Assembly (NCBI GenBank): GCA_003963315.1
Contig: RXJP01000035.1
Span: 14,802-78,801 of the forward strand
Source: Rhodocyclaceae bacterium
GTDB lineage: Bacteria > Pseudomonadota > Gammaproteobacteria > Burkholderiales > Rhodocyclaceae
DNA length: 64,000 nt
Reading direction: 5' to 3'
In this document: one piece after another, positions 3,337-60,744 of the stretch
Layout of the letters: each line of letters opens with the position of its first letter
Position numbering within the stretch: the stretch's first letter is position 1
Position numbers and translations under genes: made by a program
The notes under the pieces: generated by a model
What the model was told of the DNA's origin: nothing
What the model saw: only the letters and a program-made list of their open reading frames with translations
Databases searched by the model: none

Positions 3337-4539
3337 TTGCCCATCAGCGCCGGTCTCCTGCCCTTTCTGCTGGCCGCCCTTGCGGCCATCGGCCCGCTGT
3401 CGGTAGACACCTACCTACCGGCGTTCCCGGCCATTGCCGAGGCCCTGCACGCCACGCCGCTCCAGGTGCAGCAGTCCATGACGGCCTACCTGATCACCTT
3501 CTGTCCACTCATGCTGTGGCACGGCGCCATCGCCGACGCGGTGGGACGGCGCAGGGTCATCCTCGCCGGCTTGGCGCTCTATGCGGCGGCTTCGCTCTTC
3601 TGTGTCTTCGCCACCCGGATCGAAATGCTCTGGCTCGGCCGTGCCCTGCAGGGGCTGGCCGGCGGCGTAGGCGGCGTGGTGGGCCGCGCCATCATCCGCG
3701 ACCGTTTCCAGGGCGCCGCCGCGGTACGGCAGATGGCCCATGTCTCCATCATTTTCGCCGCCGCCCCGGCGGTCGCCCCGGTCATCGGCGGCTGGCTCTT
3801 GGTGGGGTTCCAATGGCATGCCATTTTCGTTTTCCTCACCCTCTATACCCTGCTGCTACTTTTGGCCTGCGTCCTTTGGCTGCCGGAAACACTCACCATC
3901 GAACATCGCCACAGCCTCCATCCCCGTGCCCTATGGCAAGGCTATCGGGAGGTGCTGGGCAATCCCGCTTTCCTCAAGATCAGCATCGCCACGGCTTTCT
4001 TTATGAACGGGCAGATGCTTTACATCATGTCCTCGCCCATCTTCCTGATGCGGCACTTGGGCCTCTCGCCCCAATCGTTCTATTGGCTGTTCGTGCCGGT
4101 TATCATGGGCATGGTAACGGGCAACGTGCTGTCCTCCCGCCTGGCGGGCAAGCTGCGAGTGGATCGGGTGGTGGCCCTGGGCATTGTCATCGTGCTGGCA
4201 GCGGCGACGGGCAACGTTGTGCTCAATGCCTTCATGGTCGCCCGCCTGCCTTGGGCCGTGGTCCCCATGATGATCTACGCGGTAGGCCTGTTTACCGCCT
4301 TCTCCGGACTGCAACTGATGGCGTTGGACATGTTCCCGGCGCGGCGCGGCATGGCGTCCAGTTGCCAGAGCTTCATCGTCACGCTGGGCATGGGCCTCAC
4401 CGCCGGTGTGGCAGCGCCGCTGTTGTGGGACTCCACCCTGCACTTGGCGGGCGGCATGGCCATCTACTGCTGTCTGGGACTGGCCTTCTATCGCTGGGCC
4501 AGGGCCGCGCTAAAACAGGCTGAACAACATCTCCCCTGA
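3337..4539 (+). CDS. MFS transporter, Bcr/CflA drug-resistance subfamily
   Basis: 400 aa and about 12 TM segments. The N-terminal motif GPLSVDTYLPAFPAIAEAL is typical of Bcr/CflA. The start is a TTG codon, so the exact start is uncertain. Confidence 0.8.
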   Translation: MPISAGLLPFLLAALAAIGPLSVDTYLPAFPAIAEALHATPLQVQQSMTAYLITFCPLMLWHGAIADAVGRRRVILAGLALYAAASLFCVFATRIEMLWLGRALQGLAGGVGGVVGRAIIRDRFQGAAAVRQMAHVSIIFAAAPAVAPVIGGWLLVGFQWHAIFVFLTLYTLLLLLACVLWLPETLTIEHRHSLHPRALWQGYREVLGNPAFLKISIATAFFMNGQMLYIMSSPIFLMRHLGLSPQSFYWLFVPVIMGMVTGNVLSSRLAGKLRVDRVVALGIVIVLAAATGNVVLNAFMVARLPWAVVPMMIYAVGLFTAFSGLQLMALDMFPARRGMASSCQSFIVTLGMGLTAGVAAPLLWDSTLHLAGGMAIYCCLGLAFYRWARAALKQAEQHLP

Positions 4540-5307: not shown

Positions 5308-5768
5308 TTGAGCAGCTTCTGAGTGATGAATTTCCATTCCGCCGGATCCACCGGCGTGATGGAGAGGCGATTGCCTTTTTGCAGTATGCGCATGTTCTCA
5401 AGCTCGGGGTGGGCACGCAATTCCGCCAGGCCGATCAGCCGGGTCTTTTCGGTGATGCGCACATCCACATTCATCCAGCGCGGGTTTTCCTGTGTGGATT
5501 TGGGATCGAAATAATGGCTCTCGGGATCGAACTGGGTGCGGTCCGGGTAGGCCTTCGTCGCCACTTCCGCCAAGCCGGCAATGCCCGGCTCGGGGCAGGA
5601 GGAGTGATAGAAGAACACCTTGTCCCCCACCGCCATCTGGTCGCGCATGAAATTACGCGCCTGGTAATTGCGCACCCCCCACCAATCCACGGTCTGGTTA
5701 GGCATGGCCAACACGTCATCGATGCCAACCACGGAGGGTTCGCTTTTCATCAGCCAATAACGGGGCAT
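5304..5768 (-). CDS. EVE (PUA-like) domain protein
   Basis: MPRYWLMKSEPSVVGIDDVL...WWGVRNYQARNFMRDQMAVGDKVFFYHS matches the EVE/Thy28-like family. The start was moved to the ATG at 5768 with a GGAGG RBS. Confidence 0.8.
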   Translation of the reverse strand: MPRYWLMKSEPSVVGIDDVLAMPNQTVDWWGVRNYQARNFMRDQMAVGDKVFFYHSSCPEPGIAGLAEVATKAYPDRTQFDPESHYFDPKSTQENPRWMNVDVRITEKTRLIGLAELRAHPELENMRILQKGNRLSITPVDPAEWKFITQKLLK

Positions 5769-5775
5769 GGTTCCT

Positions 5776-5810
5776 CCAAAAACAAAAAAGCGCTGAAGTC
5801 CATTCAGCGC
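5776..5810 (-). terminator. Rho-independent terminator (downstream of zapA/6S RNA)
   Basis: The minus strand reads GCGCTGAA-TGGAC-TTCAGCGC followed by TTTTTTGTTTTT. Confidence 0.7.
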
Positions 5811-5857
5811 CATATCAAACCCAAACACACAATCGAGCGTAGCGAGCTAACCAGTCA

Positions 5858-5885
5858 CCTCCCCCAAGGGGAGGCCGGGAGGGGT
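5858..5885. repeat. Short copy of the GGGGAGG-hairpin intergenic repeat (family A)
   Basis: CCTCCCCCAAGGGGAGGCCGGGAGGGGT resembles CCCCTGACAAGGGGAGGACGGGAGGGGT at 48899-48926 and units at 13117-13235. Confidence 0.55.
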
Positions 5886-5939
5886 AGTTTGACTGCCCCG
5901 CTAGCGGGGGAAACCAATATCGTCCCTGGAAGAACGATA

Positions 5940-6140
5940 TTGGTTTCCCCCGCCTGTGCCGTTAGGCCGCTATCCTGAACCTGGGTTCAGGGGGGCTGCG
6001 TTCCTGCTGCATCAGGTTCACCCGGAGAAGGGCGATCACAACAGCAGCGTCTAGGGTCGGCAACCATGTCTTGCGACATTGGTTCAAGGAAATTTACAGC
6101 CTTGGCGAACACCGCAGGGGAAAACCGGGGAAACCCAGCC
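5940..6140 (-). ncRNA. ssrS: 6S RNA (SsrS), boundaries approximate
   Basis: Sits immediately downstream of zapA, which is conserved synteny in gamma- and betaproteobacteria. There is no credible ORF. Minus-strand GGTTTTCCCC (about 6126-6117) can pair with GGGGGAAACC (about 5951-5942) as a closing stem. An internal hairpin CCTGAACC-CA-GGTTCAGG mirrors the E. coli 6S CCUUGAACC-AAG-GGUUCAAGG element. No covariance model was run. Confidence 0.55.
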
Positions 6141-6155
6141 GGCACGGCCTTGGAA

Positions 6156-6506
6156 TCAGAACAGGTCTTCCTGTTTCGTCTCCGCCAGGGCCTTGTCCAA
6201 CTTGGCTTCGATGCCAGCGATTCTACGCCGCAACGCCCCAGCGTCAACGTGGCCCGTCTCGTTTTCCACCACCGGCGCAGGGGCGGCCAGGGCATTGGCG
6301 CGCAACAGGTCGTGGGCCAGATTGAGGGCCACCATCACCGCCAGTTTTTCGCCATTGCTGCGGGTCTTGTCCGCCACTTCGGCCATGCGTTCGTCCAACA
6401 GCTTCACCGCAGCATGCAGGGCCTCCCGCTCTTCTGGCGCACAGGACACCCGGTAGTCCTTGCCTTGGATAGTGATATCGAGGGAATTCGAGTTCGCCAC
6501 AGTCAT
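6156..6506 (-). CDS. zapA: Cell division protein ZapA
   Basis: 116 aa, ...LDITIQGKDYRVSCAPEEREALHAAVKLLDERMAEV...KLAVMVALNLAHDLL matches the ZapA family. Confidence 0.9.
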   Translation of the reverse strand: MTVANSNSLDITIQGKDYRVSCAPEEREALHAAVKLLDERMAEVADKTRSNGEKLAVMVALNLAHDLLRANALAAPAPVVENETGHVDAGALRRRIAGIEAKLDKALAETKQEDLF

Positions 6507-6706
6507 GCCTCCGGCAACTTGTCCCGCAGCACTTCAAGGCGGGCACGCGCGGCATCCATCTTGTCCGCGAGGGATTGCTTCTCGGACTCCAGTACGGCCA
6601 TCCGGCTGCGCAGCGCCAAATTCTCCTCATGCAGCGAGTCGCACAAGGCCAGCACCCGGTCCACCTTCTGATCCAGGGGTTCAAAGAAATCGGGGTCAAG
6701 GTTCAT
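6503..6706 (-). CDS. Small coiled-coil protein (TIGR02449-like, usually upstream of zapA)
   Basis: MNLDPDFFEPLDQKVDRVLALCDSLHEENLALRSRMAVLESEKQSLADKMDAARARLEVL. I chose the internal ATG at 6706. It has a 4-nt overlap with the zapA start. Confidence 0.7.
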   Translation of the reverse strand: MNLDPDFFEPLDQKVDRVLALCDSLHEENLALRSRMAVLESEKQSLADKMDAARARLEVLRDKLPEA

Positions 6707-6829
6707 AACGAAAGTTTGTTGGAAATTCCCTTTATGGTCAAGGCATGAGACCTCGATTTTCAGGTAATCACTGAAGTCAGACCAGGAAAACAGGTGGGGG
6801 CCGGGCAGGTTCAAGCCCCCTTTTGCTAC

Positions 6830-7025
6830 AATCCGCCCCCTGTTCGAGGTGCCCACGCCGATTTTCTTCGGTCAGGGTGAAACGGGAAGCAGGTGAAAGA
6901 CCTGCGCTGCCCCCGCAACGGTAAGGAAGTGCGGAACCATCAAGACGCCACTGGGTGCCATCCAAAATGCGCCCGGGAAGGCGATGGTTCAAGACTTCCA
7001 AGCCCGGAGACCGGCCACGGACATT
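6830..7025 (+). promoter_or_regulatory. Cobalamin (AdoCbl) riboswitch
   Basis: Conserved core GGTGAAACGGGAAGCAGGTGAAAGACCTGCGCTGCCCCCGCAACGGTAAGG and B12 box AGCCCGGAGACCGGCC (7001-7016). A TACAAT -10 element at 6827-6832 lies just upstream, and btuB follows directly. Confidence 0.85.
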
Positions 7026-7145
7026 CGTATGAATCGCTGCGGGAGGGCAGTGGTCGGCGCATTCGTCTGCTCCGAAACTCCTTTTGCTGCGATTCCCTGT
7101 CCAATCCACTGGCAGCGGGGACGCTTGCCGGGAAAAGGAGTATCC

Positions 7146-9095
7146 ATGTTCCATCCATCCATCAAGCCCACTGCGGCAGCTATCGCCGTACTTACCGCCT
7201 TCCAAGCATGCGCTGCTGACGCGGAGCCCTCCCTGACGAATGTCGTCGTGACCGCAAATCGCCAACCCACCCGAGTCGACCGGGTGCTTGCCGACGTCAC
7301 CACGCTGAATCGGGAGGATATCCAATCCTCTGGCTACGGCTCACTTGAATTGCTCTTGGCGGCCCAGCCTGGCGTCGAGTATTCGGCCACCGGCGGCGCC
7401 GGACAACCCGCGTCCATTTTCCTCCGCGGCGCAAACGGGAATCACACATTGGTGTTGCTCGACGGGGCTCGCATCAATTCCGCCACTTTGGGTACCGCCG
7501 CGATTAGCGCCATTCCCCTTGCCGCCATCGACAGGATCGAAATCCTGCGCGGTCCCGCCTCCAGCCTGTACGGCGCCGACGCCATTGGTGGTGTGATCCA
7601 GATATTCACTCGCAGCGGCGGTGATACGCCCTACTTCAGCGCCTCCTACGGCATGGGCAACCGGAATGCGAGCGCCGCCGAAGTCGCCGGCGGCGGAAGA
7701 TTCGGCGATTGGTCTTTGTCCATGGACGCCAGCCAATCCCGTACCGATTCAGTCAATGCCATCAACCATCCTGATGCCCGCTGGGCCACCCTGTTCTTCA
7801 CCACTGATCCCTACAATCCCGACCGGGATGGTTTCCGCAACGACAGCGTAAGCGCCCGGGTCGGCTACCGCATCAATCCCGACCATCAAGTCGGCATCAA
7901 CGTATCCCGCTTCTGGGGATTGGTCCGCAAGGACGCCACCCAGTGCGACCTGGCCACCGGCTTGGTCTGTACCGCCAACTTCGACTCCCGCACCGCCCAG
8001 GCGGTGCAGACCACGTCGGCCTACTGGCGTGGTCAGTTGTCCCAGGACTGGACCAGCACCTTGCGACTGGATCGCAGCGAGGATGACCAACGGGACTATC
8101 GCTTCGATCCGGCCACCCTGCGGGAACCGCGCAGCGCCTTTGCCACCACCCAGCACCAACTGTCCTGGCAGAACGACCTGCGCCTTGGCCCCGGAAAGTT
8201 ACTGCTGGCCGCGGAAGAGCTTCAGCAGAAAATCGCGGCCAACTCCACCTATGTGCAGAAAGAACGGACCATCCGTTCCTTGCTGGCGGGCTACGACGCT
8301 TGGTATGGGCCCCATGGCGTCCAGATAAATGTCCGCCAGGATGACAACACGCAGTTCGGCACGAAAACCACCGGCGGCGTGGCATACGCCTATCAGCTCT
8401 CCCCGGCATGGCGTGCACAAGGCGGCGTCAAGACGGCGTTCAAGGCCCCCTCCTTCAATGACCTCTACTTCCCCCGGGACCCCCTCTTCGGCGGCGGCAA
8501 CCCCAACCTGAAGCCGGAAAAATCCACCTCCACCGAAGCTGGCCTGACCTACACGCAGGGAGACCACCGCCTCGGCGTCACGGTATACCGCAACAAGGTG
8601 AGCAATCTGATCGAATGGCGCCCCGACCTCGCCGTCGGTCCCTTCTTCTGGACGCCGCAAAACATCAGCCAAGCACTATTGCGTGGCGCCACCCTGACCT
8701 ATGACGGCACCCTGGCGGACTGGTGTTTCCGCGCTTCCCTAGATCTGCAAAATCCTATCGACATGGAGCGCAACGTCACCCTCAACAACCGGGCCAGGGC
8801 CACGGCCAAACTCCAGGCTGACCGCCAGATCGGCGCTTGGAATATTGGCGCCGGCTTTCTCGCCGTCGGCGCCCGCCACGAGGACGACAGTTTCAGTGCC
8901 GCCACCCCTGCCGACCGGCGCGACCGCCTGGGGGGCTATACCCTGGCGAATCTATCCGTCCAGTACGCGGTAGACAAGAATTGGAGCGTTTTCGGCCGCG
9001 CCACCAATCTCTTCGACAAACGTTACGAGCCCCGTTTCAACTACAACAGCGAAGGCGCGGGATACTTCGTCGGTGTCCGTTATCAAATGAAATAA
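7146..9095 (+). CDS. btuB: TonB-dependent vitamin B12 receptor BtuB
   Basis: Signal peptide plus TonB box (SLTNVVVTANRQPTRV), plug domain and a C-terminal beta-barrel ending ...YFVGVRYQMK. Start at the ATG 7146 with an AGGAG RBS. The ORF-track 5' extension lies inside the riboswitch. Confidence 0.9.
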   Translation: MFHPSIKPTAAAIAVLTAFQACAADAEPSLTNVVVTANRQPTRVDRVLADVTTLNREDIQSSGYGSLELLLAAQPGVEYSATGGAGQPASIFLRGANGNHTLVLLDGARINSATLGTAAISAIPLAAIDRIEILRGPASSLYGADAIGGVIQIFTRSGGDTPYFSASYGMGNRNASAAEVAGGGRFGDWSLSMDASQSRTDSVNAINHPDARWATLFFTTDPYNPDRDGFRNDSVSARVGYRINPDHQVGINVSRFWGLVRKDATQCDLATGLVCTANFDSRTAQAVQTTSAYWRGQLSQDWTSTLRLDRSEDDQRDYRFDPATLREPRSAFATTQHQLSWQNDLRLGPGKLLLAAEELQQKIAANSTYVQKERTIRSLLAGYDAWYGPHGVQINVRQDDNTQFGTKTTGGVAYAYQLSPAWRAQGGVKTAFKAPSFNDLYFPRDPLFGGGNPNLKPEKSTSTEAGLTYTQGDHRLGVTVYRNKVSNLIEWRPDLAVGPFFWTPQNISQALLRGATLTYDGTLADWCFRASLDLQNPIDMERNVTLNNRARATAKLQADRQIGAWNIGAGFLAVGARHEDDSFSAATPADRRDRLGGYTLANLSVQYAVDKNWSVFGRATNLFDKRYEPRFNYNSEGAGYFVGVRYQMK

Positions 9096-33028: not shown

Positions 33029-33104
33029 GGGTCGGTAGCTCAGTCGGTAGAGCAGCGGACTTTTAATCCGTTGGTCGCGAGTTCGAATCTCGCCCGACCC
33101 ACCA
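33029..33104 (+). tRNA. tRNA-Lys (anticodon UUU)
   Basis: GGGTCGGTAGCTCAGTCGGTAGAGCAGCGGACTTTTAATCCGTTGGTCGCGAGTTCGAATCTCGCCCGACCCACCA folds as a canonical cloverleaf. A TATAAT box lies at 33005-33010. Confidence 0.93.
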
Positions 33105-33151
33105 AAAAGCCAGGAAAAAACGGCGCGGCTTCCGTTATAATCCGCGCCCTC

Positions 33152-33227
33152 GGGCTGTTAGCTCAGTTGGTAGAGCAGCGGACTCTTAATCCGTAGGTCG
33201 AGTGTTCGAATCACTCACAGCCCACCA
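33152..33227 (+). tRNA. tRNA-Lys (anticodon CUU)
   Basis: GGGCTGTTAGCTCAGTTGGTAGAGCAGCGGACTCTTAATCCGTAGGTCGAGTGTTCGAATCACTCACAGCCCACCA. A TATAAT box lies at 33135-33140. Confidence 0.93.
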
Positions 33228-58010: not shown

Positions 58011-58827
58011 CCGCCTTCTTCCTGCGGGTGTCGTATAACGGCATTACCTGAGCTTCCCAAGCGTGCGACTCGCGTCGCGTAGGTTAGCTGTAACCGCTGC
58101 ACACGTTCGAAGTGCAGGAACACAGCCTATCGAGAGAAGTGCCGCTTGCCGGCACGATGCGGCTAAGGCCGTACGAGTAATTGTCCTGCTGCCCGCAAGG
58201 GATGACAGGACCAGGGGTTCAGCCCCTTGTAGTCTAGGAGCGGTGCGTCACTGGTAACGGTGGGGTGCCAAGCGCTCTGACAATGTAGCCACCTTACGGG
58301 GTACGCCATATCCCGCGAGGGACTTGGTGTGATTTCGGGAGTTGCACCCGGATGAGGCGCTAGGCTGGGTTGGTTGGTCAACAAAAGTGAACCGCTATTA
58401 AACGTCGTTAAGCTTGATGAGCCAAAGGCAACTTGCAATATCGGGCTCAGCCAAAACGGCACGTGATCGGTTGTTCGCCTGCTTGGTGCGAACACGCTGA
58501 CATAGGCATCACCGGCGAAAAGGCGGGACCTTCCCAATTCTGTTACTTGTGCGGAACGAGGTAAGCCCAATGCGGCGTCTGGCCAGTTTGGTAGACAAAG
58601 GTAACCGCAAGGTTATCTGATGCTGTAGTGGGTAGAGGAGGATGGAAAAAGCGAATGCCTCGCTGTAATAGCGGGGATAGGGGATGGAACGATTGCCCCG
58701 ACGCGAAAGCGTGCAGACTTCCATCTGGTGACTCTTCGTAAGAAGGGTCTGTTCAATCGCAAACCCAACGGGGATGATGCTAAGATTCCCGGTCGGGGAT
58801 AATTGCGTCTTCCTCCGAAGGTTCAGA

Positions 58828-58901
58828 GCGGGTGTAGTTCAATGGTAGAACTCCTGGTTCCCAACCAGATAACGAGGGTTCGATTCCCTTCACCCGCTCC
58901 A
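58828..58901 (+). tRNA. Intact tRNA-Gly (anticodon CCC) located inside intron domain IV
   Basis: GCGGGTGTAGTTCAATGGTAGAACTCCTGGTTCCCAACCAGATAACGAGGGTTCGATTCCCTTCACCCGCTCCA is a 74-nt canonical cloverleaf with encoded CCA. It lies 17 nt upstream of the IEP ATG. Confidence 0.88.
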
Positions 58902-58918
58902 TACAACCGGAGGTTGAT

Positions 58919-60586
58919 ATGGACGCAATGCAATCTGATTGCGATGTCGCCTCTACGGCTTGGCAGTCTTGGCACGAAGTTTCATGGATCAAGGCTTATC
59001 AAGTTGTCGCGAGGCTACAGGCACGTATTGCGAAGGCAGCAAAAGTAGGGGAATGGCGGAGGGTTCGCACCCTGCAGAGACTCCTGACCAAATCGAGTAG
59101 TGCGAAAGTGCTGGCAGTTCGGCGGGTCACGGAGAATCAAGGCCGGAAGACTCCAGGCGTGGATAAACAAACCTGGGGCACGCCGGAAGAGAAGTGGAAA
59201 GCGGTAGTTGACCTTGGTAACAAGAGATACAAGCCGTTACCATTACGACGCATCTACATTCCGAAAGCAAATGGTGACCAACGCCCTCTGGGCATACCCA
59301 CCATGCGTGATCGGGCGATGCAAGCGCTGCATTTGCTGGCGCTGGATCCTGTTGCCGAAACAATCGCAGATCCTCATTCCTACGGTTTCAGACGTGAGCG
59401 CTCGACGGCAGATGCTATCGAACAAGTGCGCAACGTGCTGGGCCGGAAAGCTTCCCCGAAATGGGTGCTGGAAGGAGATATCAAAGGTTGTTTTGACAAC
59501 ATTAGTCATGACTGGCTGGTTGCTAATGTCTGCATAGACAAGGGCGTCCTTCGGAAATGGCTGAAAGCAGGCTTTATCGAGATGGGAAGGCTTTTCCCAA
59601 CGCAAGCAGGGACGCCACAGGGAGGCATCATTTCCCCGGTCTTGGCGAATCTGGCGCTGGATGGGCTGCAACATGAACTGACCAAACTGTTCCGTACAGT
59701 GCGGGAGGCGCGTGCGGCAAAGGTCAATCTGGTGCGGTATGCGGATGACTTCATCATCACTGGGAGCTCGCAAGAGTTTTTGGCGGAGAAGGTCAAACCT
59801 CTGGTGGAGAAATTCCTTGCCGCCCGGGGCCTCAAACTCTCGGAAAAGAAAACCAAAATCACGCATGTGACGGAGGGTTTCGACTTCCTGGGGTGGAATG
59901 TCAGATATTTCAATCGAATGCTGGTCACACAGCCGTCGAAGAAGAATATCAAGGCGTTTCTGGAGAAAATCCGCAACCTGCTGCGCGACAGAAAGGCTGC
60001 TGGACAGATCGAGGTGATCGAAAAGCTGACCCCGGTACTCAGGGGATGGGCCAACTATCATCGAAGTCAGATGGCGTCCCAGACGTTTGCAAGGTGCGAT
60101 CATCAAATCTGGCGAGCATTATGGCGCTGGGCGTGTCGCCGTCACCCAAACAAAGGGAAGCGGTGGATCAAACAGCGTTACTTCAAATGCCTCAAGGGGC
60201 GTGACTGGCGATTTGCGGATCAGGACAAGTTGCTGCCCATCTTGGCGGGATGCCGGAAACGGCCCCACACCAAGATCATGGCCGAAGCGAATCCGTACGA
60301 TCCGACGTACGACGAGTATTTTTCCAGACGGCTTGCACAGCGAATGGAAAAGACGCTCGAAGGACGGCTCAAGCTTCGCTGGTTGTGGTGGTGGCAGGAA
60401 GGTGAATGCCCCATCTGCAATCAAAAGATCACGAGAGAAACCGGGTGGCACCTCCACCACATAATCAAGCGATCTCAGCGAGGTTCGGACAAGCTGACCA
60501 ACTTGGTCTTGCTGCATCCGAATTGCCATATGCAGTACCACGTTTTTGAGAAATACGGCCCTGCCGGCACCTCAATGTTCAAATAG
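58919..60586 (+). CDS. Group II intron-encoded protein: reverse transcriptase / maturase (X) / HNH endonuclease
   Basis: 555 aa. RT motifs are IPKANGDQRPLGIPTMRDR, SYGFRRERS, DIKGCFDNISH, GTPQGGIISPVLANLAL, YADDFIITG and GFDFLGW. The X domain has RGWANYHR. The En domain has CPICNQ...HLHHII...LLHPNCHMQYH. A GGAGG RBS lies at 58909-58913. Confidence 0.93.
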   Translation: MDAMQSDCDVASTAWQSWHEVSWIKAYQVVARLQARIAKAAKVGEWRRVRTLQRLLTKSSSAKVLAVRRVTENQGRKTPGVDKQTWGTPEEKWKAVVDLGNKRYKPLPLRRIYIPKANGDQRPLGIPTMRDRAMQALHLLALDPVAETIADPHSYGFRRERSTADAIEQVRNVLGRKASPKWVLEGDIKGCFDNISHDWLVANVCIDKGVLRKWLKAGFIEMGRLFPTQAGTPQGGIISPVLANLALDGLQHELTKLFRTVREARAAKVNLVRYADDFIITGSSQEFLAEKVKPLVEKFLAARGLKLSEKKTKITHVTEGFDFLGWNVRYFNRMLVTQPSKKNIKAFLEKIRNLLRDRKAAGQIEVIEKLTPVLRGWANYHRSQMASQTFARCDHQIWRALWRWACRRHPNKGKRWIKQRYFKCLKGRDWRFADQDKLLPILAGCRKRPHTKIMAEANPYDPTYDEYFSRRLAQRMEKTLEGRLKLRWLWWWQEGECPICNQKITRETGWHLHHIIKRSQRGSDKLTNLVLLHPNCHMQYHVFEKYGPAGTSMFK

Positions 60587-60605
60587 GGGTGCTTATGGGT
60601 TGCTT

Positions 60606-60639
60606 GAGCCGTATGCGGGGAAACTTGCACGTACGGTTC
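60606..60639 (+). other. Group II intron domain V (catalytic hairpin)
   Basis: GAGCCGTATGCGGGGAAACTTGCACGTACGGTTC is a 34-nt hairpin with an AGC triad, a 2-nt bulge and a GAAA tetraloop, typical of chloroplast-like/IIB bacterial introns. Confidence 0.9.
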
Positions 60640-60715
60640 TTAGGGGAGGGGGTGGCCGTGAGGCTACCCCCTTACCCGCCTCATGAAGAGGGTTCGACTC
60701 CCTTCACCCGCTCCA

Positions 60716-60744
60716 AAAAACAAAGGGCGCCCCACGGCGCCCTT
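60716..60744 (-). terminator. Rho-independent terminator of the dioxygenase gene (abuts the tRNA-Gly 3' end, possibly bidirectional)
   Basis: The minus strand reads AAGGGCGCC-GTGG-GGCGCCCTT followed by TGTTTTTT. Confidence 0.7.

Follow-up and report, generated by a model that had tools for sequence, protein, structure and literature searches.

How can a mobile intron settle in a conserved tRNA gene of a bacterium, and what becomes of the tRNA once it has done so? Mobile introns are thought to be tolerated by their hosts through self-splicing, and in bacteria they mostly avoid important genes. The locus that raises the question lies in a stretch of 64,000 nucleotides from a Rhodocyclaceae bacterium (assembly GCA_003963315.1, contig RXJP01000035.1, positions 14,802 to 78,801), the whole of which we call the window. 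It consists of a gene for tRNA-Gly(CCC) that is split in its anticodon stem by a group II intron with an open reading frame (ORF), and inside the intron stands a second, intact gene for tRNA-Gly(CCC). This inner tRNA is the most unusual feature of the locus, and the earlier note on this DNA, made from the letters alone, had missed it. By its sequence, the element is a retromobile intron of chloroplast-like/IIB type in a chromosomal tRNA-Gly(CCC) gene, and it belongs to a monophyletic clade whose members are always inserted in tRNA-Gly(CCC) and carry a tRNA-Gly(CCC) of their own. We consider it fairly probable that the inner tRNA is a functional spare copy that compensates for the invasion of its target, which would make the intron a self-compensating selfish element.

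The split gene and all intron features given below lie on the forward strand. The 5' exon (58024-58062, tRNA positions 1-40) reads, part by part, GCGGGTG-TC-GTAT-AACGGCA-TTAC-C-TGAGC-TTCCCAA-GC, and the 3' exon (60681-60715) supplies positions 41-73 and an encoded CCA; the intron is inserted between tRNA positions 40 and 41, in the anticodon stem. Joined, the exons give 74 nt that ARAGORN calls as tRNA-Gly(CCC) with a perfect 5-bp anticodon stem, in agreement with the 74-nt cloverleaf that the earlier note had proposed. Metagenome contigs were scanned for an empty site with a 40-nt pattern across the exon junction. An uninterrupted tRNA gene was found in 86 contigs, and in 19 of these it is identical to the joined exons of the window at 74 of 74 positions, the part corresponding to the 5' exon included; this uninterrupted gene scores 54.4 bits with RF00005 (threshold 29). 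Such a precise empty site is the classical proof of intron boundaries. ARAGORN runs with shifted junctions were also tried as a boundary control, proved too tolerant to discriminate, and were replaced by the empty site. Among the uninterrupted alleles, none had the flanking genes of the window in the same arrangement, so that a syntenic empty site was not found. A T13.T22 mismatch in the D stem of the outer tRNA is native and common to the uninterrupted alleles.

That a group II intron of 2618 nt occupies positions 58063-60680 is, in our judgement, practically certain. It begins with GUGCGAC, in which GUGCG (58063-58067) agrees with the GUGYG consensus and is kept in about 46 related loci, and it ends with ...ACCCGCC. 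A conserved segment of domain I (58211-58359) matches RF02012 (group-II-D1D4-7) with 103.3 bits, and the full RF00029 model, which covers domains V and VI, aligns to 60604-60680 with 66.4 bits and ends exactly at the last base of the intron. The same alignment delimits domain V, the 34-nt catalytic hairpin (60606-60639), and domain VI (60642-60678), whose loop is GUGA and whose bulged branch-point A is at 60674, six bases ahead of the intron's 3' end. The start, the two hairpins and the branch point had all been read from the letters in the earlier note, and the covariance models now bear that reading out. Its central claim, that a complete group II intron with an ORF splits a tRNA-Gly(CCC) gene in the anticodon stem, likewise holds on the strength of these models, the empty site, the covariation of exon- and intron-binding sites described below and about 50 insertions at the same site in other genomes. 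It had allowed that homologous copies might displace the boundaries, and about 50 related loci share the same junctions. It had also remarked that the 3' end would be ...GCC in place of the usual AY, and this is correct. Among relatives, many introns end in ...GAC, one subclade ends in ...GCC or ...TCC, and the CC-type introns introduced below end in ...GAA. AY is a consensus preference and no absolute requirement, and the boundary, including its non-AY 3' end, is fixed because the empty site matches the joined exons.

The intron-encoded protein (58919-60586, 555 aa) contains RVT_N, RVT_1 (the reverse transcriptase (RT), with the YADD motif kept), GIIM maturase and HNH endonuclease domains, all above the Pfam thresholds. 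It is preceded by a Shine-Dalgarno sequence, GGAGG (58909-58913, read from the sequence), 7 nt past the CCA of the inner tRNA. Its closest solved relative is the TeI4h maturase/RT (6ME0_C), which it matches at full length with 608 bits and about half of the residues identical, and this relationship places the intron in the chloroplast-like/IIB lineage. TeI4h, a Thermosynechococcus elongatus intron of group IIB, is located in a tRNA-Ile(CAU) gene (PMC2882425); the view expressed in the earlier note, that bacterial tRNA introns are of group I and that group II introns in tRNA genes are an organellar feature, is contradicted by this published case. The intron of the window has a single D1 and a single DV/DVI, that is, it is not a twintron, and its relatives range in length from 2590 to 3188 nt. 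The first ~130 nt after GUGCGAC (58068-58200 in the window) have near-zero BLAST match even in close relatives, and the rest of the intron matches at 70-90%. A candidate helix closing domain IV, between GCAA(A)CCCA (58760-58768) and TGGGTTGC (60596-60603), is plausible in the window and unsupported in distant loci, and was rejected.

A tRNA gene is a frequent target of integrative elements, which duplicate a portion of it, and the two tRNA halves might on that ground be attachment-site duplications. An assembly artefact could also be suspected, given that the exact protein occurs on a short Logan contig (SRR7877887, 3619 nt; L082) that begins 46 nt upstream of the ORF and so breaks inside the inner tRNA. 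We regard both accounts as effectively refuted. The halves do not overlap and, when joined, equal uninterrupted genes; all ribozyme domains are present, and the exon- and intron-binding sites covary. No integrase is present, and the same structure occurs in isolate genomes and in long-read metagenome-assembled genomes (MAGs). Short-read assemblies are probably broken by the ~30 identical nt that the inner tRNA shares with the 3' exon, and the architecture is likely to be under-assembled in metagenomes.

Recognition of the tRNA gene by the intron can be read from its exon-binding sites (EBS) and the intron-binding sites (IBS) of the exon. EBS1 (GCTTGG, 58481-58486) forms the loop of the hairpin GTTCGC-CT-GCTTGG-T-GCGAAC and pairs at 6 of 6 positions with IBS1, CCAAGC, the last 6 nt of the 5' exon. 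EBS2 (AAGCTTG, 58409-58415) forms 7 contiguous pairs with IBS2, that is, GAGCTT and its neighbours upstream of IBS1 (exon positions -8 to -14, tRNA positions 33 to 27). An EBS1 is kept in all loci, and the stem of its hairpin varies by compensatory changes. At the variant junction where the 5' exon ends in ...TTCCCAACC (...CCCAACC, here called CC-type), both introns, and only they, have GGTTGG at EBS1; the change from GCTTGG to GGTTGG thus compensates for that from ...AAGC to ...AACC at the junction. EBS2 covaries with exon positions 28/29 in many loci, and it reads GAACCA(A/G) in the introns at CC-type sites.

Relatives of the protein number in the thousands, and we fetched 80 related genome loci (referred to by L numbers where they must be told apart). 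An intact inner tRNA-Gly(CCC) stands at the same place in 54 of them, with proteins 58-91% identical to that of the window, and the anticodon is CCC in all 55. The hosts are mostly Betaproteobacteria, with Rhodocyclales, Burkholderiales and Gallionellaceae among the carriers, and some are Gammaproteobacteria; isolates include Piscinibacter (Ideonella) sakaiensis 201-F6 (L035), Duganella alba FT9W (L015) and Massilia sp. Bi118 (L016). In a neighbour-joining tree of the proteins, the tRNA-carrying introns form one clade. Its sister clades, at 59% identity or less, occur in Pseudomonas, Azotobacter, Citrobacter, Marinobacterium and Achromobacter; their introns have a hairpin of ~35 nt and a spacer in the place of the tRNA, and no tRNA-like sequence was found in their flanks. 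The plasmid and phage collections searched do not contain the element, their only matches being of ~100 nt to a related intron on plasmids. These unannotated stretches, on plasmids of E. coli, Shigella, E. albertii and Enterobacter (hits H1-H15; L081 is E. coli NZ_CP011417.1), are 83-84% identical to window positions 58630-58729 and are presumably part of a related intron without a tRNA.

In every clade member with a preserved 5' flank, the insertion site is ...GCTTCCCAAGC followed by GTGCGAC, between tRNA-Gly(CCC) positions 40 and 41. The joined exons are called as tRNA-Gly(CCC) in 41 of the 42 loci with both junctions, and the exception (L031) has been rearranged, its true 3' exon being located further downstream. 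The outer exons are the hosts' own genes, since their sequences differ by host group and the parts on either side of the intron change in step (CTAGC/GCTAG, GCAGC/GCTGC, CTTGC/GCAAG and others).

The inner tRNA-Gly(CCC) of the window (58828-58901) was called by ARAGORN and scores 68.5 bits with RF00005. It is located in domain IV, between the 5' domains of the ribozyme and the protein ORF, and ends 17 nt before the ATG. Its acceptor stem is the same as that of the outer tRNA and its T arm nearly the same, whereas the D arm differs, and the anticodon stem is CCTGG/CCAGA in the inner copy versus TGAGC/GCTCA in the outer one. Among 34 unique inner tRNA sequences, 98.5% of the cells of the cloverleaf are paired, 8 of 21 pairs have double-sided changes, and the observed covariation is reached in 0 of 500 shuffles. 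The anticodon loop, G1:C72, C2:G71, G3:C70, U73 and CCA are invariant in these sequences, as are C35 and C36. U73, G1:C72, C2:G71, G3:C70, C35 and C36, all found in the inner tRNA, are identity elements of E. coli tRNA-Gly. Mean pairwise identity over 51 loci falls from 86% in the inner tRNA to 73% in the protein-coding DNA and 43% in the 74 nt upstream of the tRNA. The covariation, the invariant positions and a degree of conservation above that of the protein gene together point to selection acting on the inner tRNA as a tRNA.

No conserved promoter was found upstream of the inner tRNA, and a forward-strand promoter scan was empty; a GATAAT in the window, considered as part of a promoter of its own, is not conserved and was dismissed. 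Since no conserved promoter precedes it, the inner tRNA most likely shares a transcript with the intron, started at the promoter of the host tRNA gene.

The same lack of a promoter would suit another role, in which the inner tRNA mainly serves RNA processing and translation: cleavage by RNase P and at the 3' end would free an mRNA with a short leader and an exposed ribosome-binding site, and decoding would be incidental. The arrangement of the locus lends itself to this idea, as the tRNA always stands directly upstream of a GGAGG-like motif and a start codon, ending a few nt before the motif (the order of tRNA, motif and start codon is seen in most clade members), and the tRNA-less sister introns have just a hairpin and a spacer there. 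Any tRNA-like fold would do for such a purpose, yet the identity of the cargo always equals that of the target, with CCC in all 55 loci and with the loop (34 aligned sequences), the acceptor pairs and U73 invariant. The decay of outer genes beside clean inner tRNAs, described below, would also be left unexplained. We think it rather unlikely that processing is the main role of the inner tRNA; the two roles, processing element and spare copy, are not mutually exclusive. As a separate observation, the 3' CUCC of the inner tRNA (in ...GCUCCA) is complementary to GGAG of the Shine-Dalgarno sequence 8 nt downstream (58897-58913 in the window), and a hairpin of the two could, as an idea, mask the ribosome-binding site in unprocessed RNA.

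Conservation of sequence might also arise without a selected function, if the inner tRNA were a neutral passenger renewed from the host tRNA by recombination, gene conversion or RT template switching. Some inner tRNAs do look mosaic. Those of L001 (3909-3983) and L007 (3908-3982) have a D arm of Rhodocyclales type (GTATAACGGCTATTAC, 75 nt in total) together with the T loop TTCGACT, as in the outer tRNA of the window, and most other inner tRNAs, that of the window included, have D arms with GTTC/GAAC or GCTC/GAGC, as in the outer tRNAs of Burkholderiales and Gallionellaceae. These mosaics suggest exchange between host and intron-borne tRNAs, for which the ~30 identical nucleotides of the two copies would offer an opportunity, and two loci (L028 and L031) show such recombination. 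The account is nevertheless very improbable in our view. The tRNA goes back to a single acquisition and has been retained across the clade, with proteins down to ~58% identity, at a constant position and with far more conservation than its flanks. Only two clade members have a degraded copy, and both are otherwise truncated or divergent: L014 lacks the 5' part of the intron and is a 5'-truncated copy, and L058, from Solimonas fluminis, has an internal deletion. Each retains the last 18-20 nt of the tRNA (at ~3960-4000 of the locus) before the Shine-Dalgarno sequence and the ATG.

If the inner tRNA is indeed a spare, the outer gene could decay, and the comparison of the two sets points this way. 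With the 27:43 pair, often non-canonical in both sets, omitted from the counts, stem mismatches occur in 1 of 53 inner and 17 of 42 outer tRNAs; 13 of these 17 share C28.U42, and 3 have the native T13.T22. The C28.U42 loci are all from Burkholderiales (L015, L016, L035-L037, L039, L040, L043, L044, L046, L047, L049 and L051), with an anticodon stem GCAGC/GCTTC and a 3' exon that starts with TTC, and their close relatives L033 and L034 have a matching TGC. In one of these loci, L035 (P. sakaiensis), the outer stem GCAGC/GCUUC is accompanied by an inner stem UCUGC/GCAGA. C28.U42 may have arisen by decay or by co-conversion of the 3' exon from a donor of GAAGC type, or it may be native. Some outer genes beside an intact inner tRNA are more strongly damaged: the 5' splice site is GCGCG in L004 and L006 and GUACG in L053, and L038 has lost one base of the outer anticodon loop.

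A second difference between the copies concerns the pairs that the intron reads. The 29:41 pair, which contributes to IBS2 (exon position -12) and also to the first base of the 3' exon, is A:U in 38 of 42 outer tRNAs. Just 7 of 53 inner tRNAs have A:U there, and U:A (30) and G:C (16) prevail among them. In 35 of 46 loci, EBS1 and EBS2 of the intron make more contiguous pairs with its own outer tRNA than with its inner one; the numbers are equal in 7 loci, and the outer tRNA has fewer in 4. In the window, the counts are 13 for the outer and 7 for the inner tRNA. This trend fits selection against self-invasion. Immunity through a change in IBS1 was considered as a general rule and rejected. A CC-type inner tRNA occurs only in the window and in L003/L004, L010, L028 and L031, L047 has another IBS1 change, and most inner tRNAs keep CCCAAGC; the more general difference between inner and outer copies is pair 29:41.

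In 3 of the ~55 loci, a second intron or its remains lies in the inner tRNA. L027 is an intact twintron, in which a GC-specific intron occupies the host tRNA and its CC-type inner tRNA is in turn split by a CC-specific intron that has a GC-type inner tRNA of its own and a truncated ORF; the locus contains two D1, two DV/DVI and one intact tRNA. L028 and L031 are recombined derivatives of twintron-like structures. As read from these sequences, there are two specificities, and in the nested loci each intron type carries the tRNA type that it does not itself target. A nested structure of another kind is seen in Massilia sp. Bi118 (L016), where an unrelated second group II intron (5705-8097) lies inside domain V of the tRNA-Gly intron; the inserted intron has its own DV/DVI match (8002-8097), the host intron resumes at 8098, and the total length is 4998 nt.

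Nesting shows that inner tRNAs are used as targets in nature, and the inner tRNA might accordingly be seen as a portable homing site, a landing pad for more intron copies that is kept for, or by, intron proliferation. Nested introns of Methanosarcina acetivorans and other twintrons provide a precedent (PMC4424553): there, too, an intron contains the homing site of related introns, and nesting is balanced by recombinational deletion, to which L027, L028 and L031 may be compared. The homing site in M. acetivorans is intron sequence without coding exons, whereas here it is a complete, conserved tRNA gene. Nesting is confined to the 3 loci just described, and the inner tRNAs tend to mismatch the EBS of their carriers (35 of 46) and avoid the A29:U41 typical of invaded genes, which looks like avoidance of nesting. 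Nor does nesting bring any obvious gain in the transmission of the carrier, and a landing pad is, in our estimate, quite an improbable reason for the presence of the tRNA.

Taking the inner tRNA to be a compensating spare copy, we envisage the following course of events. The whole unit would be transcribed from the promoter of the host tRNA gene, maturase-aided splicing would religate the outer tRNA, and RNase P together with 3'-end processing would cut the inner tRNA out of either the precursor or the excised intron. The inner tRNA would then give the cell tRNA-Gly(CCC) even if splicing is slow or fails, and the cost of invasion would be lowered. The HNH/RT protein and the lariat would retrohome into intron-less tRNA-Gly(CCC) genes. 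The inner tRNA would be a poor substrate for its own carrier because the anticodon-stem pairs read by the EBS usually differ from those of the target, especially 29:41 (IBS2, IBS3) and, in some introns including that of the window, also 31:39 (IBS1). Once the spare exists, the outer gene would be free to decay, and the intron would become hard to lose.

Several points weigh against this proposal. Excision of the inner tRNA from domain IV would cut the intron RNA in two, in conflict with retromobility unless just a fraction of the RNA is affected or splicing comes first. A group II intron that is split in domain IV is still able to splice in trans. Molecules cut in domain IV would be unable to retrohome, from which we infer that a balance of processing and mobility would have to exist. 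The gene for tRNA-Gly(CCC) (glyU) is dispensable in E. coli; given this, the split target may not be essential, and compensation may carry less weight if the tRNA is dispensable in these hosts as well. C28.U42 might be native to its hosts or come from recombination, and not from decay. The self-immunity effect is small in most loci, about one base pair, the loci are phylogenetically non-independent, and the comparison of inner and outer tRNAs is partly circular, since outer tRNAs are by definition already invaded. Finally, a search for EBS3 by covariation with the first base of the 3' exon gave no convincing column; only 7 sequences were informative, and the variable part of domain I aligned unreliably.

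A broader version of the spare-copy proposal, to which we give somewhat less than even chances, is that the clade follows a new selfish strategy. The intron would specialise on a conserved tRNA gene and carry a functional replacement that it cannot itself invade, so that invasion would be nearly free of cost; the original gene could decay, and the host would then depend on the element for tRNA-Gly(CCC). An arms race of GC- and CC-type tRNA variants against retargeted EBS1 and EBS2 would lead to the nested structures.

Prophages and integrative elements that insert into tRNA genes bring along, within attP, a substitute for the 3' segment of the tRNA. The logic is the same, as the function of the tRNA is kept by the element that targets its gene; those elements differ in relying on DNA recombination by an integrase and in duplicating a partial tRNA, whereas the element in the window is a ribozyme retroelement with a whole, separate tRNA gene. 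Self-splicing introns of group I also occur in bacterial tRNA genes, in the anticodon loops of tRNA-Leu, tRNA-fMet, tRNA-Ile and tRNA-Arg. They belong to another ribozyme class, however, are inserted in the loop and not in the stem, and are not known to have a reverse transcriptase or a cargo tRNA. TeI4h (ribonucleoprotein structures 6ME0/6MEC) shares with the window intron its position in a bacterial tRNA gene and has the closest solved protein. It differs in the tRNA, in the phylum of the host and in a deviant 5' U, its family is mostly found at other sites, and no tRNA cargo has been reported for it; the clade of the window intron, in contrast, is dedicated as a whole to a single tRNA site, and its introns bring along a copy of the tRNA in question. 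The group II introns in organellar tRNA genes (chloroplast trnK with MatK, and trnG, trnV, trnA and trnI) are similar in the interrupted tRNA, the maturase ORF in domain IV and the dependence of the host on splicing. They are immobile and vertically inherited, with degenerate proteins (PMC4424553), and none is known to have a second copy of the interrupted tRNA. The intron in the window, unlike these, has intact RT and HNH domains and a sign of recent mobility in the exact empty site. The variant group II intron types that have been reviewed include ORF-less introns, twintrons, altered splice sites, alternative splicing and LAGLIDADG cargo, and no tRNA cargo is among them (PMC4424553). Within the full-text literature outside subscription-only papers, we found no tRNA-carrying group II intron, no clade dedicated to tRNA-Gly(CCC) and no group II intron in a bacterial tRNA gene besides TeI4h. 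The conserved arrangement of an intron-borne tRNA-Gly(CCC) in a split tRNA-Gly(CCC) gene is apparently undescribed.

The host is a MAG of the Rhodocyclaceae, with a LeuRS that is 100% identical to a protein of an NCBI MAG and ~81% identical to that of Zoogloea. The window, which is chromosomal, also contains leuS, uvrD, spoT/relA and a gene for malic enzyme. Directly past the 3' end of the outer tRNA is a GC-rich hairpin (60723-60744), a probable bidirectional terminator that was scored on the reverse strand; on the forward strand it is followed by TTGTCCGTTT. Ordinary features elsewhere in the window are a 6S RNA (5943-6123, reverse strand), a cobalamin riboswitch (6830-7033, forward strand) upstream of an ORF of 703 aa, and tandem genes for tRNA-Lys(UUU) and tRNA-Lys(CUU) (33029-33227, forward strand).

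Where mobile introns in bacteria mostly keep away from important genes, this widespread clade does the opposite, homing into one conserved tRNA gene and bringing its own copy. If the inner tRNA is functional, a mobile intron would here compensate its damage genetically and not by splicing alone, and it could become indispensable once the original gene decays. One practical consequence is that the inner tRNA will be listed by annotation pipelines as the tRNA-Gly(CCC) of the organism, with the split gene overlooked. The system is tractable, with cultured carriers that include the PET-degrading P. sakaiensis 201-F6 and, in TeI4h, a relative for which mobility assays and cryo-EM structures exist. 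If true, the proposal would bear on the domestication and addiction of selfish elements, on how introns come to settle in essential genes, as in organelles, and on the evolution of tRNA repertoires.

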